Below are positions 12,965 to 38,126 of a stretch of DNA of 38,126 bases, one piece after another. Below the pieces are notes generated by a model that worked only from the letters and a program-made list of their open reading frames with translations, did not search any database and was not told the origin of the DNA. Every line of letters starts with the position of its first letter. Within the stretch, counting starts at the first letter, position 1. The translations under genes were made by a program, and so were the position numbers. The stretch comes from a virus (lineage: Duplodnaviria; Caudoviricetes), in IMG/VR virus record IMGVR_UViG_3300014160_000008, positions 1 to 38,126 of that record, one strand, 5' to 3'.

Positions 12965-15466
12965 GTGTCGCAGCTCGTCGACCAGTTCGGGCAGCCGATC
13001 AAACCGGCGCAACTGACCGCGCCGATGCGGCCGGACCAGACGCTGACGACGCAGCGCCGTTTGTGGCGGCAGGCGACGATCGAGCCGACGGAAGTTTTCA
13101 ACGCGGTCATGCGCGCGGAAATCGGCGAGACCGTTTATCTGCAAGACCTGTTGTTCCGCATTTCCTTCGATTCGCGCGTTACCTCCGACAGCGAAAAACG
13201 GGTCGGCAAGCTCGAGCTGGTCGATTTCGGCGTGAGCCCGTTCGAGACGCCGGCGGACCCGGCGAACGATCGCGAGCAGATGATCGCGGATTTCTGCGCC
13301 GAGGCGATCGATCGCATTCCGAATTTCGGCGGCGCCCGGGCGCACCTGGGCGGCGGGCGGCTCTATGGCTGGCGCGTTTGCGAAATGCGGTGGGACCATC
13401 GCACGAGCAAGGGCACGAAATGGCTGCTGCCCGTCGAGCTGCGCGAACGCCGCACGCGCGATTTCCGGCCGAACCCTGCCGATCATTCGCAGTTCCAACG
13501 CTGGGTCGGCCTCGGCTCGCAGATCGTCGAAAATCAAAAGCCGTTGAACCCGCAGACGTTCGGTTGGGCGCCGCTCGAACCGGCGCGGTATCTGGTCAAC
13601 TGGTTCACCAACGATGGGTCGGCCATGCTCGCCGGCCTTTATATCAAGCTGGTTTTCCCGGTGCTCGCGATCAATTGGACGCTGACGCAGTGGGGCGAAC
13701 TGCTCGAATTGTTCGGCAAGGGCTCGGCCGATGTCACCTATGACGCGGTGAAAGGCGGCGAGCAAAACACGGCCAATGCCATCGCCGAAGGCAGCGGCAC
13801 GCCGCTTTGGACCGCGATGAATTCGGCATATTCGATCAAGCGCGAAATCATGACCGGCCGCGCGACCCACGCCGACTTTCACGACCGTGCGAAAAAAGCC
13901 GTCAGCGAAGTGCTGCTCGGCTCGCAACTGACGACGGACCAGGGCACGGTCGGCAGCCAGGCGCTCGGCAACGTGCATGCGCAGGAACTCGACGATCTGC
14001 GGGCGCGCGACGCCAAGCACCTGGCCGAATGCTGCCTGACCGAGCAACTCGTCAAGGCGATCGTCATTATCAATTTCGGGCCGCAAGAGCGGTATCCCTA
14101 TGCCTGGCTGAATTATAAAAAACCGGCCGACCTCAAGCTCGAAATGGCGACCGATACCGGTCTGCATCAGATTGGCGTGCCCCTGTCGAAATCCGACACG
14201 TACCAGCGCTACAACCGGCAGCCGCCGAGCGGGCCGGACGACACGCTGGCGCCGGGCAATAATACCAATGCGGCTGCGGCTGCGGCTGCGGAAAACAATG
14301 GGGGCGCGGGCGGACAGACCTTTGTCGCCCGACCCGCGCCCCGCCGATTCTCCGCCGGCAACGACGGCGGCGGCGACGGCGACACGGCGGCGCCCGACGA
14401 AATTCTCGCCCTCGATGCGCGCCTGCAATCCGAGGCAATCGCGGCGATCGAGGACGCGCCGTCGCTGACCGCGGCCGAAGCGGCGCTACGCGACCTGATG
14501 GCGGCCGTCGAAATCTCTCACACCGGCCGCGTCGCCTACGAGCTTTACCGCGTGCAGGCGCTGGCGCATTTGGCCGGCATTTGGTCGGACATGCGCGACC
14601 ACGGCGAGACGCCGGCGAGGCCGCGCAGCGCGCTATGGCTGCCCCACCGCGCGCGCCTGGCGCGTCTCTGCAAGCTCGGCGATCTGCGGGCTGACGGCCT
14701 CGCCTCCGTAAGCGGACGCGCGTTTGCAACCGTCATCGACGAATGGGCCGACGTGCCGATGCAAGAGGCAATCGATTACTTCGAGCGCAAGGGCATCGTG
14801 TCGGCCGACGAATGGGCCGCGCTCGATGATGCCTACAAACATCGGGGCTTTTTTGCCGCGAAAATCGGTACGGGCGAAGAATTAAAGACCGCTTATGACG
14901 CCATTAACAACGCTTTAAAAACCGGGGCGGCGCGCGATAGCGTCGTGCGCGATCTGCGCGCGAAACTCGCCAATCCGCCCTCAACATCCTATTTGCGATT
15001 TTTGTTCGATGAAAACGTCGGCACGGCGCAGGCGTTCGGCCGCTATGCCCGGCAGGAAAAAACCAAGGCCGACCGTCCCTACGGCCGTTACGTGACGATG
15101 GGCGACGGCCGCGTGCGCGCGCGGCACGCCGCGGCGCATGGCGTCGTCAAGCATTTGGATCATCCCTGGTGGCAGCGCAACACGCCAAAAAACGGCTACC
15201 GCTGCCGCTGCGAGAGGAACACCTACACGGCCGCCGATCTGGCCGCGCATGGTTGGTCCGAAACGCCGGGCACGCCGCCGGACGTTTGCGATCCGGGCTT
15301 CATGCACACGATGAGCGCGGCGGCCGGCGCCGACGAACGCTTGAACGCGCTGGTCGCGCAGTCGCACGAAGACGGCCTGCTCAGCGGTTATGACGTTCCC
15401 GCGATTATCACATTCGGTTCGGACAAAGGCCGGCCGATCATCGTCGGACAAAGGAAGGCGCAATGA
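12965..15466 (+). CDS. portal protein (Mu gp29/DUF935) fused to Mu gpF (gp30) head morphogenesis domain
   Basis: Portal motifs LVDQFGQPI and VSEVLLGSQLTTDQGTVGSQALGNVH. gpF motifs QEAIDYFERKG, YVTMGDGRVRARH and WWQRNTPKNGYRCRC, all in one uninterrupted frame. Confidence 0.88.
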   Translation: MSQLVDQFGQPIKPAQLTAPMRPDQTLTTQRRLWRQATIEPTEVFNAVMRAEIGETVYLQDLLFRISFDSRVTSDSEKRVGKLELVDFGVSPFETPADPANDREQMIADFCAEAIDRIPNFGGARAHLGGGRLYGWRVCEMRWDHRTSKGTKWLLPVELRERRTRDFRPNPADHSQFQRWVGLGSQIVENQKPLNPQTFGWAPLEPARYLVNWFTNDGSAMLAGLYIKLVFPVLAINWTLTQWGELLELFGKGSADVTYDAVKGGEQNTANAIAEGSGTPLWTAMNSAYSIKREIMTGRATHADFHDRAKKAVSEVLLGSQLTTDQGTVGSQALGNVHAQELDDLRARDAKHLAECCLTEQLVKAIVIINFGPQERYPYAWLNYKKPADLKLEMATDTGLHQIGVPLSKSDTYQRYNRQPPSGPDDTLAPGNNTNAAAAAAAENNGGAGGQTFVARPAPRRFSAGNDGGGDGDTAAPDEILALDARLQSEAIAAIEDAPSLTAAEAALRDLMAAVEISHTGRVAYELYRVQALAHLAGIWSDMRDHGETPARPRSALWLPHRARLARLCKLGDLRADGLASVSGRAFATVIDEWADVPMQEAIDYFERKGIVSADEWAALDDAYKHRGFFAAKIGTGEELKTAYDAINNALKTGAARDSVVRDLRAKLANPPSTSYLRFLFDENVGTAQAFGRYARQEKTKADRPYGRYVTMGDGRVRARHAAAHGVVKHLDHPWWQRNTPKNGYRCRCERNTYTAADLAAHGWSETPGTPPDVCDPGFMHTMSAAAGADERLNALVAQSHEDGLLSGYDVPAIITFGSDKGRPIIVGQRKAQ

Positions 15467-34454: not shown

Positions 34455-34943
34455 CTAGCCCGGAGTGCAGTCCGACGGCGGCCCGGCAATGCCTTCTTGC
34501 ACCAACGCGACAAAACAATTGCTCATAATCTGGCAACTGGAACCGGCGTAATAAATGCACTGTCCGAGCTGCTGCGTCACGCCATACGGAACTTGGTTGT
34601 TTTCGCAAGCCGAAACGAACTGGGCCTCGGTGCAGCCGACGATCCCGAGGCCGCATTTCGTGCAGAAAGCGTCGTAGAGGGATTGGCAGGTCGGTCCGCT
34701 GTCGTCGTCATCGTCGTCGTTGTCGTCATTGTCATCATCATCGTCGTCGTCATCGGCCGCATCGTTATCGTCGTCGGCCGCATCGTCGTCGATCGTAGCG
34801 TCATCATCGGCGGTCGGCGAGCCGTCGTCGTCGGCGGCGACGTAAATGTTATTCGTGGTCTTGGCGCCGGGAGCGCACGTCGCCAGGAGCAAGAGGCAGC
34901 CGGCCAGGAGCAAGGACGCGATCGCGACAGTCAGGGCCTTCAT
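34455..34943 (-). CDS. Asp-rich, Cys-rich lipoprotein (moron)
   Basis: Lipobox LLAGC, poly-Asp linker, C-terminal domain with 9 Cys. GGGAGA RBS. Only convincing minus-strand gene in the window. Confidence 0.82.
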   Translation of the reverse strand: MKALTVAIASLLLAGCLLLLATCAPGAKTTNNIYVAADDDGSPTADDDATIDDDAADDDNDAADDDDDDDDNDDNDDDDDDSGPTCQSLYDAFCTKCGLGIVGCTEAQFVSACENNQVPYGVTQQLGQCIYYAGSSCQIMSNCFVALVQEGIAGPPSDCTPG

Positions 34944-34975
34944 CTCAATCTCCCATTTTCAAACGTGATGAGCGG

Positions 34976-35005
34976 ATTCTCCCGCCGCAGGCAGAAGAAT
35001 GTCAA
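34976..35005 (-). promoter_or_regulatory. sigma70-like promoter for the lipoprotein moron
   Basis: Minus strand reads TTGACA-N18-GAGAAT, with the -10 box 32 nt upstream of the ATG. Confidence 0.55.
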
Positions 35006-35059
35006 GGGCGGTATTCACGGGCGTTCGCGCGAATTCGTGATTTTAAAAAGGAGTCCTAA

Positions 35060-35527
35060 ATGAGCGACCTCGGCCGAAAACTTCTCAATACCGCCAAATC
35101 CTACCTGGGCGTGCGCCGCGAACCGGGCACGTGCCCGCCCGCGATCGCCGAATTTCTCGCGGCCGTTGGCATGCCGCCGAACGAAACGCTGGCCTGGTGC
35201 AAAGCGTTTTTCACTTTCGTTTGCCAGCAGTGCGGCGTGGCCATCGACACGCACCCGAACGCCCGCGCGCTGCTCTCCGACCCGGACTGGCAACGCGTCG
35301 AGCCAGCCGACGTGCAGGCCGGCGACGCGGCCGTTTTCTGGCGCGGCGACCCGAAGGGCTGGGAAGGCCACATTGCATTTGTCGCCGAGCCGCCTGGGAG
35401 CGCTGGCGTTCCCGCCGGCTTTTTGCGCGTCCTCGGCGGCAACCAGGCGTCATCCGTGTGCTATGAGAATTTCCCGGTCAACCGCGTGCTGGCCTATCTG
35501 CGGCCGAAGGAGCAAGCCGATGCCTAA
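35060..35527 (+). CDS. endolysin, CHAP/NlpC-P60-like peptidoglycan hydrolase (TIGR02594-like)
   Basis: AAAGGAG RBS. Catalytic Cys/His motifs AWCKAF and GHIAFV, plus GDAAVFWRG and LGGNQ. Confidence 0.85.
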   Translation: MSDLGRKLLNTAKSYLGVRREPGTCPPAIAEFLAAVGMPPNETLAWCKAFFTFVCQQCGVAIDTHPNARALLSDPDWQRVEPADVQAGDAAVFWRGDPKGWEGHIAFVAEPPGSAGVPAGFLRVLGGNQASSVCYENFPVNRVLAYLRPKEQADA

Positions 35528-35789
35528 ACAACGCGAGTGCCATTGCCCCTGCTGCGGCTCCGCGGCCGTCCCAACCTATGCGGCCGGCCCGGCTGAGGGT
35601 TCGGTCCTTTGGGTTGAAGTTACAAGGTGCACCGATTGCGGCTTTGCCGTTCATTATCCGAAAAACGCCGCGACCTACGAGGCCGGCCTCTCGCGCACGT
35701 ATTTCGCGATGATCCGCGAGCTGCTCGAACTCTACGACAAGGCGCCCCCGGCGTGCGATCGCAACGTGCTGCCCGGACGGCAGGCGTGA
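35520..35789 (+). CDS. small Zn-ribbon protein (at the Mu com position)
   Basis: AAGGAG RBS. CHCPCC...CTDC motifs. Overlaps the endolysin stop. Confidence 0.68.
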   Translation: MPKQRECHCPCCGSAAVPTYAAGPAEGSVLWVEVTRCTDCGFAVHYPKNAATYEAGLSRTYFAMIRELLELYDKAPPACDRNVLPGRQA

Positions 35790-35843
35790 ACGCTCTTTAC
35801 GATCATCTTCACGTCGAAGTGCACCCCGGAACGGGAGCGTAAT

Positions 35844-36650
35844 ATCACAACTTCCGCGCGCCAGTTTTCACCCAACGCCCCGACGCCGATCGAGCACGTC
35901 GCCGGCGTCATGGTCAAACGCGATGATCTTTTCGAAGTCGCCGGCGTGTGCGGCGGTAAAGCACGGGCCTGTCTGGGTTTGGTGCGAAGAGCCCCAAAGC
36001 CGCGGCTCGGTCTCGTCACGGCCGGCGCGGCCGCATCGCCGCAGGTAAATATCGTGGCCCACATTGGCGCGGAATTGGGTCTGCCGGTGCGGGCGCACGT
36101 GCCGAAAACGAAGGTACTGTCGCCGGAAATTGCGGCGGCGAAGGCCCGCGGTGCGGAGATCATTCAGCACGCGCCTGGCTACAACACCGTGATCGTCGCG
36201 CGCTGCCGCGCCGACGCTCGCGCTCGGGGCTGGATCGAGATCCCATTCGGCATGGAGTGCCCCGAGGCCGTCATACAGACGTGGCAGCAGGCGGCGCTGC
36301 TGCCCTGGGGCCAATTCAAACGGATCGTCATGCCCTGCGGCTCGGGAATGAGCCTCGCCGGCGTCCTCTGGGCCCTGAAAGAATCGGGATGCAGAACGCC
36401 GGTGATTGCGGTGCGTGTCGGCGCGGACCCGAGCAAGCGGCTCGATGAGTACGCGCCGGATGAATGGCGGGCGATGGTTCAGATCGTCGATTCGGGAACG
36501 GGCTACAAAATGGCCGCAGAAACGCAATGGAACGGAATCACCCTCGATCCGCACTATGAAGCAAAGGCGGCGAGGTTCGTGCAGCCGGACGATCTTTTTT
36601 GGATCGTCGGGCTGCGGCAGACGGTTAAGCGCTCTTTAACAACTGAATAA
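35844..36650 (+). CDS. PLP-dependent fold-type-II enzyme (ACC deaminase/D-cysteine desulfhydrase-like); start uncertain (ATC 35844 or ATG 35910)
   Basis: PTPIE...VKRDDLF...GGKAR (Schiff-base Lys), VMPCGSGMSLAG (phosphate-binding loop) and LDPHYEAKA motifs. Confidence 0.85.
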   Translation: MTTSARQFSPNAPTPIEHVAGVMVKRDDLFEVAGVCGGKARACLGLVRRAPKPRLGLVTAGAAASPQVNIVAHIGAELGLPVRAHVPKTKVLSPEIAAAKARGAEIIQHAPGYNTVIVARCRADARARGWIEIPFGMECPEAVIQTWQQAALLPWGQFKRIVMPCGSGMSLAGVLWALKESGCRTPVIAVRVGADPSKRLDEYAPDEWRAMVQIVDSGTGYKMAAETQWNGITLDPHYEAKAARFVQPDDLFWIVGLRQTVKRSLTTE

Positions 36651-36806
36651 TGACGGTTTTTTAGGTGTAAAAACGCCCCGAAAAAAAGGGGCAGAGTTGG
36701 CATGTTAGCGCATGCCGAACCGACGACGCTTGCACGTCGCCCCGACGAAGCCGGCTGCCCCTAGCGAGAACACAGGCATTCTAGCCGGCGAAAAAGGGAT
36801 GACAAG

Positions 36807-37709
36807 ATGCAGTCTTCATTGCGTGATTCGTTCATCGTGCCGCCGTTCAGCGTTCTGGATGCGCGGCAGGGTTATTGGCAGGAGCGGAAACGGCGCTGGC
36901 TCGAGCTGATCGGCGAAATGCGGCCGACGTGCCCGCAGCCGCTGTTTCACGACGTTTCGATCGGCGGGAAAACCAAGAAGATCAAGGACGGCAAAAACCT
37001 CTCGATTTTCGACCCGGTTCTTGCCGAAGTGCTTTTGCATTGGTTCTGCCCCGTCGCCGGCGACGTGTTCGATCCGTTCGGCGGCGAGGCGGTCAAGGGC
37101 ATCGTGGCGGCGACGTGCGGCCGGCAATATTTCGGCGTCGAAATTCGGCCGGCGCAGGTCTGGGAAAATCGGCGCATCGCCAAGCGTCTCGGCGCGACGC
37201 GTTGCACCTGGTTGATCGGAGACGCCGGCAAGCTCGCCGCGCTCGTGGCGGCGCAGCGGACCTTCGATTTTGTGTTTTCTTCACCGCCATATTGGAACCT
37301 CGAACGCTACCGCGGGCCGCGCGGCGATCTCTCCGAGGCGCGCGATTACGGGTCATTCCTGGCCGCCTTTGAGCGCATCGTTTGCCTCTCGGCCGAGCGG
37401 CTGCGGCCCGGCCGGTTCATGGCGATCAAGGTCGGGAATTTCCGCGATCGCCGCGGGGCGCTGATCGATTTTGTGGGCGACACGGCGCGTTGCGGCGCGG
37501 CGGCCGGCCTGGCGTTCTACAACCAATACGTTCTCGCCGGCGTGAATGGCGCCGCGCCGCTGCGAGGACGCGGCATGATGCGCACGCGCAAATGCGCCCC
37601 GACCCATCAGGCGGTGCTGGTCTTTTTCAAGGGCAACCCGCGCGAGTTCGATCGGCGCGCGTTCCCGGAGATCAAGAGATACGATGATCCGCTTCCGGCT
37701 GCGGAATAA
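36807..37709 (+). CDS. SAM-dependent DNA amino-methyltransferase-like protein (N6-A/N4-C type)
   Basis: Motif I-like VFDPFGGE...GVEIR precedes motif IV FSSPPY. N-terminal VPPFSVLDARQGYWQERK and SIFDPVLAE patterns resemble phage MTases. Confidence 0.85.
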   Translation: MQSSLRDSFIVPPFSVLDARQGYWQERKRRWLELIGEMRPTCPQPLFHDVSIGGKTKKIKDGKNLSIFDPVLAEVLLHWFCPVAGDVFDPFGGEAVKGIVAATCGRQYFGVEIRPAQVWENRRIAKRLGATRCTWLIGDAGKLAALVAAQRTFDFVFSSPPYWNLERYRGPRGDLSEARDYGSFLAAFERIVCLSAERLRPGRFMAIKVGNFRDRRGALIDFVGDTARCGAAAGLAFYNQYVLAGVNGAAPLRGRGMMRTRKCAPTHQAVLVFFKGNPREFDRRAFPEIKRYDDPLPAAE

Positions 37710-38126
37710 GGCGCTGCGGGCGCGGGTCATCGCCGACCACCTGGCGAAACTCGGCCAGACGCGCTGCCTCGTATATTCGTGCGGCAATGCGGCGCGCGAA
37801 TTGCGCCGCGTCGGCCTCGACGTTGTCGAGGTTGGCGCGGCCGGCGCCCTGATCGCCCAGCGGGAGCTTGATTGCGAGGAAATGCTCCTCACGCACCCCG
37901 GGCTTTTCAACGCGACCAGCGGCCATTTGTCGCCGGCGTTGATGGCGCGCCTGGCGGACGTGTTCCGCCAGTGGCTGCCACCCAAAATTCTAGGTTCGAG
38001 CGAGCCGGTTTGGTGCCCTTGCGGCAGCGGCGAGACGCTGGTCGCCCTGGCGGCGAGCCTCGGTTTCCGCCGTCTGCGGGCGATCATTTCGGCCGATATT
38101 CCGGCCATCAACTTCGGAATGACGCC
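37684..38126 (+). CDS. second, compact PLP fold-type-II-like protein, 3'-truncated (absent from the ORF track)
   Basis: Manual translation: MIRFRLRNKALRARVIADHL...CLVYSCGNAARELRRVGL...FNATSGHL...VWCPCGSGETLVAL. This shows a Lys, an SxGN loop and a PxGSG loop. No stop before the window end. Confidence 0.7.
   Translation, partial: MIRFRLRNKALRARVIADHLAKLGQTRCLVYSCGNAARELRRVGLDVVEVGAAGALIAQRELDCEEMLLTHPGLFNATSGHLSPALMARLADVFRQWLPPKILGSSEPVWCPCGSGETLVALAASLGFRRLRAIISADIPAINFGMT

Follow-up and report, generated by a model that had tools for sequence, protein, structure and literature searches.

The window analysed here is the whole of a 38,126-nucleotide stretch, the IMG/VR record IMGVR_UViG_3300014160_000008 (Caudoviricetes), which belongs to a Mu-like prophage. 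Near its right end are four genes for a Zn-ribbon protein, a pyridoxal 5'-phosphate (PLP) enzyme of family A (PLP-A), a methyltransferase (MTase)-like protein and a small PLP protein of family C (PLP-C). The genes are real and linked, and a post-replicative hypermodification of phage DNA is predicted from them. The explanation that is favoured, by a little over even chances, is the transfer of an aminocarboxypropyl group from S-adenosylmethionine (SAM) to a DNA base, followed by PLP-dependent tailoring, probably to an aminopropyl base. Relatives of the MTase-like protein have four recurring types of partner, namely the PLP families A, B and C and a class 1b SAM decarboxylase. The covariation between a residue of the cofactor pocket and the partner suggests real but indirect support for the idea of aminocarboxypropyl transfer and subsequent decarboxylation, which had been raised in an earlier note made from the sequence of the window.

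The MTase-like protein and its partner enzymes

The MTase-like protein carries the motif I DPFGGEAVKG (E94 and K97; 37071-37100) ahead of an SPPY motif IV (37281-37292, residues 159-162). The earlier note had called this motif I atypical; both motifs are present, but motif I is not peculiar to this protein and is common to a whole clade. The structure model (predicted local distance difference test, pLDDT, 81.9) has a class I SAM fold, which together with a motif IV of the (D/N/S)PP(Y/F) form characterizes amino-(N6A/N4C) DNA methyltransferases. In the register of motif I, FGGEAVK aligns to FAGTGTT and FMGSGTT of solved methylases, so that the canonical F-x-G-x-G-T/S is not present, the second Gly being missing across the whole family. 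The nearest PDB sequence is TTHA0409 (2zie), relative to which the protein is circularly permuted, and spermidine synthase is not among its PDB sequence matches.

The PLP-C gene overlaps the MTase-like gene by 26 nt. The second, overlapping PLP-fold protein described in the earlier note is a complete open reading frame (ORF) of 183 aa in the genome, and its model (pLDDT 88.8) matches fold-type-II PLP enzymes: the top 33 rows of 48,161 chains are all of this type, with Z scores of 7.1-10.8 and the next row at 5.1, and the Foldseek E value is only about 2e-3. K9, G34-N35, ATSG and GSGE are invariant in an alignment of 35 rows, and R12 is invariant too. Family C comprises 239 clusters at 50% identity, whose best 150 representatives have 121-263 aa and in no case an MTase domain; 122 of these 150 keep the sequence [ST][CS]GN. 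In beta-eliminating enzymes, the S/T-x-G-N loop binds the substrate carboxylate. Going by the modelled fold, the members of family C are notably small for PLP proteins of fold type II. A PDB sequence search with family C gave no matches, and its profile comparison with families A or B is weak (probability 10-40%).

Loci, designated by L numbers, were collected in sets by MTase, by PLP-A and by family C; the viral loci of family C were recovered by an alignment search, a single-sequence scan of viral contigs having found none. An MTase gene lies upstream in 77 of the 80 family-C viral loci, and the remaining 3 have less than 300 bp of upstream sequence. Family C accompanies the motif type of the window (Glu, Lys and SPPY) in 11 of the 12 loci collected by MTase only and in 10 of the 11 informative metagenome clusters, the window copy and L370 set aside. 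Family A is fused to or inserted in the MTase in 16/22 lineage entries, the site frequently falling between motifs I and IV, and a single family-A locus among 34 (L116) has no MTase within 4 kb, while family B is a separate gene downstream of the MTase. The co-occurrence of these families across phages, which the earlier note had proposed as a check, is therefore found, fusions and insertions included.

The partner types are mutually exclusive except in the window prophage, the sole element seen with two. The closest relative (L370, G008:C138; 54% identity) carries the MTase and family C behind baseplate and tail genes, on a contig that stops inside the family C gene, and it has neither a Zn ribbon nor PLP-A. 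The core is therefore the MTase-like protein with the mini-PLP enzyme, to which the Zn ribbon and PLP-A are an add-on, and the notion of the four genes as a fixed unit is not supported. No SAM decarboxylase gene is present in the window cassette, and one host homologue occurs on another contig (C219).

Several gene arrangements were also seen around these families. In the Erythrobacter phages R6L and ZS04 (H22/H23, H100/H101), a family-B PLP domain lies between two MTase pieces, so family B is insertable too. A Cys-rich domain with no Pfam or NCBIfam match stands beside the MTase or is joined to it in several lineages that have an A or C partner (L004:5364-5975, which is phiCTP1 gp50, and L074, L086, L107, L111, L115 and L158). 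Dozens of loci of an alphaproteobacterial-type family-B group (L020-L075, e.g., L024:3449-5213) have the MTase core and an N-terminal piece, formed by the ParB side and MTase residues 2-34, in separate overlapping frames. A stand-alone PLP-A abuts a partial MTase match on the opposite strand in L110:3338-4824, and in L114:2352-5587 PLP-A lies within a long ORF that overlaps the MTase end.

Motif I and the type of partner

Motif types were drawn from 352 MTase cores, which form 140 clusters at 70% identity, and three types dominate: GGSVR and CPPY with family A, B or no partner, GE..K and SPPY with family C, and GDTVF and CPPY with the decarboxylase. Among loci newly collected by the MTase alone with the FAGDTVF pattern, a SAM decarboxylase gene is found downstream in 74/79. 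The position of K97 was compared in 160 representatives, consisting of all first-set representatives that pass a length filter and 22 hand-listed of the 40 metagenome clusters; 13 were dropped for a short flank or a gap at this site, and L401 dropped out by length. The 147 informative representatives comprise 33 with an aromatic residue and a decarboxylase, 1 aromatic without it, 110 with Lys or Arg without it, 1 with Lys or Arg and a decarboxylase, and 2 with Thr. A SAM decarboxylase is thus nearby in 33/34 aromatic lineages versus 1/111 Lys/Arg lineages, and PLP partners accompany Lys/Arg.

In a tree calculated with the motif columns masked, whose supports are FastTree values and not bootstraps, two changes from Phe to Lys fall within the decarboxylase clade (support 0.998). 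One case is a group of four lineages (0.99) in which the decarboxylase is not nearby. The other is L390 (sister L349, 0.987), where a PLP family B gene takes the place of the decarboxylase after the MTase. The branch of the window MTase itself is long (1.36). L071, which has Tyr and a decarboxylase among Arg lineages, was considered as an independent origin and was not retained, the approximately unbiased (AU) test being non-significant (p 0.30). Motif-I variants GSHSK and GSLAR occur near the family-C clade in L376, L207 and L220, and family C is present in one of these.

E94 is in register with the D/E of hhhhGGG(D/E)G, the aminopropyltransferase motif in which this residue is part of the decarboxylated-SAM site (PMC11107197). 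Family C was considered from E94 as a maker of decarboxylated SAM, and this candidate was lowered after lineages with Asp and Lys and without a decarboxylase appeared. The decarboxylase of phage P2559S, whose gene lies directly after an MTase homologue, restores spermidine in E. coli speD mutants and is a proven SAM decarboxylase (AdoMetDC), and some other phage decarboxylase homologues are Arg/Orn decarboxylases (PMC9992855).

The prophage, its ends and the add-on genes

The window corresponds to G000:C5:19066-57191 of the host assembly. The prophage spans C5:15806-57471 (41,666 bp), with TG...CA termini, a 5-bp duplication (ACAGA) on both flanks and terminal repeats in which 21/30 of the outermost nt are alike between the ends. 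Its Mu-like gene set comprises a DDE transposase, called from IS481-type and rve matches below cut-off, an AAA ATPase, Gam, Mu portal/F and protease I, all above Pfam cut-offs, and baseplate J and gp48. The Mu portal and Mu F domains are carried by a single ORF of 833 aa (window 12965-15466). The right end lies at window-equivalent 38406, 171 bp past the end of the fourth ORF (C5:57300), and a host polysaccharide-export gene on the opposite strand is next beyond it. All four genes lie within the exact prophage ends, which makes them a linked and complete cassette. Contigs of two sequencing runs, possible sources of this DNA, cover 34707-38126 with zero differences. The data sets that contain the DNA are wetland metagenomes, with no RNA run listed among them.

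These limits bear on several statements of the earlier note. Its four co-oriented genes were all found as ORFs on the same strand. The expectation that the operon leaves the window, with possible further components, failed on the downstream sequence, and the prophage does not end before 36807, a case that would have separated the genes. The genes do lie downstream of tail genes, as described, but two ORFs intervene (34455-34943 on the minus strand and 35060-35527 on the plus strand). The placement at the position of com and mom is right as regards the right end of a Mu-like prophage, but a Com-like role of the Zn-ribbon protein is not borne out, as this ORF has no Com family match in Pfam, NCBIfam or PHROGs and no homologue by sequence among proteins of 48-156 aa. 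The stated absence of a mom acetyltransferase agrees with the lack of any Mom match, the last genes encoding the MTase-fold and PLP-fold proteins.

Features at the right end of the window (Table 1) include the add-on genes. The structure model of the Zn-ribbon protein (pLDDT 0.49) gives weak Atlas matches, and the gene is a variable add-on, absent from L370. The mini-ORF behind it has a coding-like base pattern (GC 0.79/0.32/0.53) and is a possible translational coupler or frameshift remnant. The first ATG of PLP-A (35910) leaves out the conserved TP[IV]E stretch, and its homologues have a median of 21 residues upstream of the KRDD motif. The ATC codon at 35844, which is in frame and follows GGAG by 6 nt, restores a normal N-terminus and is likely the non-canonical start. 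An assembly error at this site was rejected, there being no indel or substitution in the covering contigs, one of which, a piece from a third run, covers the ATC and is also identical. Because the sequence is identical in these contigs, the start of the gene is read as either weak or decayed. The region 35760-35920 folds no better than its shuffles (z 0.85), so no Com-type hairpin was found over the PLP-A start.

PLP-A has 598 relatives at E<=1e-20, and its catalytic residues are all intact, with an invariant Lys in GGK and the G-S-G phosphate loop in an alignment of 28 rows. Its PDB matches are IlvA, D-Cys desulfhydrase and 1-aminocyclopropane-1-carboxylate (ACC) deaminase. The earlier note had mentioned the PLP enzymes of phages ViI and M6, and kinship of this fold-type-II enzyme with M6 gp52 was found both by alignment (22% identity over 277 columns, E 1e-8, with K36 of gp52 aligned) and by profile hidden Markov models (HMMs), family A matching gp52 with E 1e-11 and family B with E 2e-14. 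No sigma-70-like site was found on the plus strand of the spacer between the add-on genes and the core.

The gene upstream of the cassette encodes a CHAP/TIGR02594-like protein; it overlaps the Zn-ribbon start and is a context gene outside the modification module. A homologous gene follows the capsid gene of a second, unrelated prophage of the same genome (L368, G000:C108:9144-12272). The lipoprotein-like ORF 34455-34943, of 162 aa and opposite in orientation to the late genes, has a long Asp-rich linker and a Cys-rich C-terminus; it is similar to host proteins with Asp runs on the same contig and is a possible moron.

Table 1. Features at the right end of the window, in order of position
Feature	Position	Strand	Evidence
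CHAP/TIGR02594-like peptidoglycan hydrolase gene	35060..35527	+	TIGR02594 E 3.7e-11 (below cut-off), phrog_1259 E 1.6e-12
Zn-ribbon ORFan, 89 aa, CPCC...CTDC	35520..35789	+	sub-threshold Zn-ribbon matches only
18-codon mini-ORF	35786..35842	+	GTG start overlaps Zn-ribbon stop (GTGA); TAA ends 1 nt before ATC at 35844 (TAA-T-ATC)
PLP family A enzyme, fold type II, M6 gp52-like	35844..36650	+	PF00291 E 5e-12; Schiff-base Lys codon 35958
Spacer, 156 bp, between add-on genes and MTase/mini-PLP core	36651..36806	.	
Amino-methyltransferase-fold transferase, 300 aa	36807..37709	+	PF01555 E 8.5e-7; phrog_12517 E 8e-79
PLP family C mini-enzyme, 183 aa	37684..38126, on to window-equivalent 38235 (C5:56749-57300)	+	fold match, invariant residues

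Proposed chemistry and alternative explanations

In the proposed mechanism, the MTase-like protein would move the 3-amino-3-carboxypropyl arm of SAM, in place of its methyl, onto an exocyclic amine in a phage DNA base, for which A-N6, C-N4 or G-N2 are candidates. K97 (or Arg) would hold the SAM carboxylate, because the relatives paired with the decarboxylase have Phe or Tyr there. The decarboxylase route would make decarboxylated SAM before aminopropyl transfer. The enzymes with PLP partners would use intact SAM, so that the PLP step would follow the transfer and decarboxylation would take place on DNA, with the same product. Lineages without a partner would stop at the carboxylated base. PLP enzymes would act on the amino-acid arm, the simplest step being decarboxylation to an aminopropyl base, which would shield phage DNA from host nucleases. 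A methyl group would offer a PLP enzyme no substrate, and the aminocarboxypropyl arm would have a free alpha-amine, which M6 gp52 requires to decarboxylate a DNA-bound amino acid (PMC8989533). Family A would decarboxylate as M6 gp52 does for Gly-thymine, although in the window prophage it is an add-on and may be weakly translated. That the step of family C, the obligate partner in the clade of the window, is decarboxylation has a little less than an even chance; it may be epimerisation, elimination or another reaction at C-alpha. This step is the weakest link of the proposal, as family C keeps the carboxylate loop of beta-eliminating enzymes. Net charge was tried as a test of DNA binding and is uninformative, M6 gp52 itself being neutral.

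Among systems that have been worked out, CmoA/CmoX of Synechococcus phage S-B43 comes closest (PMC12783734); it likewise combines a methylase homologue, a retuned cofactor pocket, a SAM-processing partner and non-methyl transfer, with ParBc often nearby. It differs in the C5-cytosine methylase scaffold, carboxy-SAM and the carboxymethyl product, whereas in the window the scaffold is that of an amino-methylase and the group predicted is a C3/C4 amino-alkyl. The PLP decarboxylases of thymidine hypermodification, M6 gp52 and ViI gp226 (PMC8989533), are like PLP-A in fold type II and in the aligned Schiff-base Lys, the homology having been computed for gp52. These enzymes act on Gly or Ser attached to 5-hydroxymethyldeoxyuridine (hmdU) by a kinase and an amino-acid:DNA transferase, whereas the partner here is a SAM-dependent transferase. 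Neither an hmdU kinase nor an amino-acid:DNA transferase was found between the start of the cassette and the prophage end, the other parts of the prophage not having been scanned gene by gene.

Spermidine and thermospermine synthases with AdoMetDC (PMC11107197, PMC9992855) share the class I fold and the acidic residue in the same motif-I register, and their pairing with a decarboxylase recurs, in class 1b form, in the sister clade; they differ in the polyamine acceptor and the lack of a PDB sequence match, and the window enzyme keeps the basic K97 and PLP partners. The beta-class N4C/N6A methylases (TTHA0409, 2zie) and the phage ParB-N6_N4_Mtase fusions (PMC12704722) have the SPPY..L..Y motif, PF01555 and a prophage location in common with the window family. 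In the window family, however, the order is permuted (motif I and then motif IV), the second Gly of FxGxG is lost and the enzymes are locked to decarboxylase-type partners; the available text of the ParB-N6_N4_Mtase survey does not mention PLP or decarboxylase partners (PMC12704722). As with com and mom of Mu, the genes come last at the right end of a transposable prophage and have a small Cys4 protein upstream, but neither Mom nor Com was matched here. The product that Mom makes with Gly-tRNA is N6-carbamoylmethyl-2'-deoxyadenosine (6-NcmdA) (PMC13219725).

Several observations weigh against the proposed chemistry. Because the three motif types largely coincide with three clades, few independent events stand behind the counts, and the placement of L071 outside the decarboxylase clade is not significant. 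L445 has Lys with a decarboxylase, L336 and L312/313/315/316 have Phe without it, and L016 and L401 have the window-type motif without family C. No partner was detected within 2 kb in 42/69 informative Gly/Arg/CPPY lineages of the first set, or nearby in 7/8 of the metagenome set, which is what a self-sufficient methylase would show. In 3 clusters, an acidic residue at E94 is combined with Lys in the absence of any partner, so that it is not diagnostic, and ordinary gamma-class methylases can carry D/E at this position. The role suggested for K97 comes from alignment and covariation. The similarity of PLP-A to M6 gp52 is only 22%, the family HMM of PLP-C does not match M6 gp52, and no biochemical data were found for any family member.

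The partners could instead decarboxylate, epimerise or destroy SAM, so as to starve host SAM-dependent restriction while the phage enzyme methylates from SAM or an altered donor. This private donor or SAM sink is rather unlikely. It accounts for the optional partners in Gly/Arg lineages and agrees with the invariably small and separate format of family C (among its best 150 representatives), which the SAM decarboxylase shares; SPPY or CPPY with a class I fold is typical of amino-methylases, and CmoA/CmoX is a case of phages that make private SAM analogues (PMC12783734). The PLP-partnered enzymes nevertheless retain Lys/Arg at the K97 position, and in L390 Lys came back when PLP-B replaced the decarboxylase, from which the PLP enzymes appear not to supply decarboxylated SAM. 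Moreover, a SAM-destroying domain inside a SAM-using enzyme would be self-defeating.

That the target is RNA, protein or a small amine, with the same chemistry or methylation (e.g., tRNA protection or polyamine-like synthesis), is less probable again. The top fold matches of the MTase-like protein, which also count against a DNA target, are tRNA N2-methylguanosine (m2G) methyltransferases, namely aTrm11 (Z 19.1, rmsd, root-mean-square deviation, 2.5 over 182 residues), TrmN (Z 18.7) and Trm14 (overall range Z 17.9-19.1), and the protein has neither a ParB domain nor an evident target-recognition domain. Its nearest sequences, however, are beta-class DNA amino-methylases, many relatives lie directly before terminase genes, several are annotated as ParB fusions, and the window gene is at the Mu right end. 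Hardly more can be said, and if anything slightly less, for an ordinary orphan methylase of N6-methyladenine (m6A) or N4-methylcytosine (m4C) with unrelated PLP neighbours, in which the Zn-ribbon/PLP-A pair would be a decaying insert. Although the many partnerless lineages, the non-canonical PLP-A start and the long branch of the window MTase agree with it, it leaves aside the MTase ahead of nearly all family-C genes, the repeated in-frame insertion of family A, the covariation of motif and partner and the intact catalytic residues of PLP-A.

With aminocarboxypropyl transfer and PLP tailoring as the preferred explanation, a broader proposal is put forward tentatively, at somewhat less than even confidence: the widespread phage methylase-fold family would be DNA aminoalkyl transferases with interchangeable routes to an aminopropyl base, served by a SAM decarboxylase before the transfer or by one of three PLP enzymes after it, the route being set by a motif-I residue. 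Family C would be a minimal, previously undescribed PLP enzyme of 160-200 aa, and the window prophage, having both A and C, would produce an additional tailored base instead of the Mom product of Mu. The abstract of Iyer et al. 2013 reportedly predicts phage bases from modified SAM, so that a computational prediction of the variant with a decarboxylase may already exist. In the available main text of the literature covered, there is no description of an MTase-PLP or MTase-decarboxylase module, nor of an aminopropyl or aminocarboxypropyl DNA base (including PMC9992855, PMC12704722, PMC8989533, PMC11107197, PMC12783734, PMC13229309, PMC13219725 and PMC8256090).

The covariation yields the single-residue predictions K97F and E94G, and cultured carriers amenable to DNA analysis are P2559S and ZRG1 with the decarboxylase, Pam4 with family A, R6L and Mae-JY30 with family B and phiCTP1 with family C. 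If the proposal is true, the two genes would provide a tool that uses natural cofactors to equip DNA with a primary-amine handle. Many phage genes annotated as DNA methylase or ParB-methylase would be writers of a cationic, amine-bearing base, which would be a further means of evading restriction and would explain the SAM decarboxylases found in phages without spermidine synthase.

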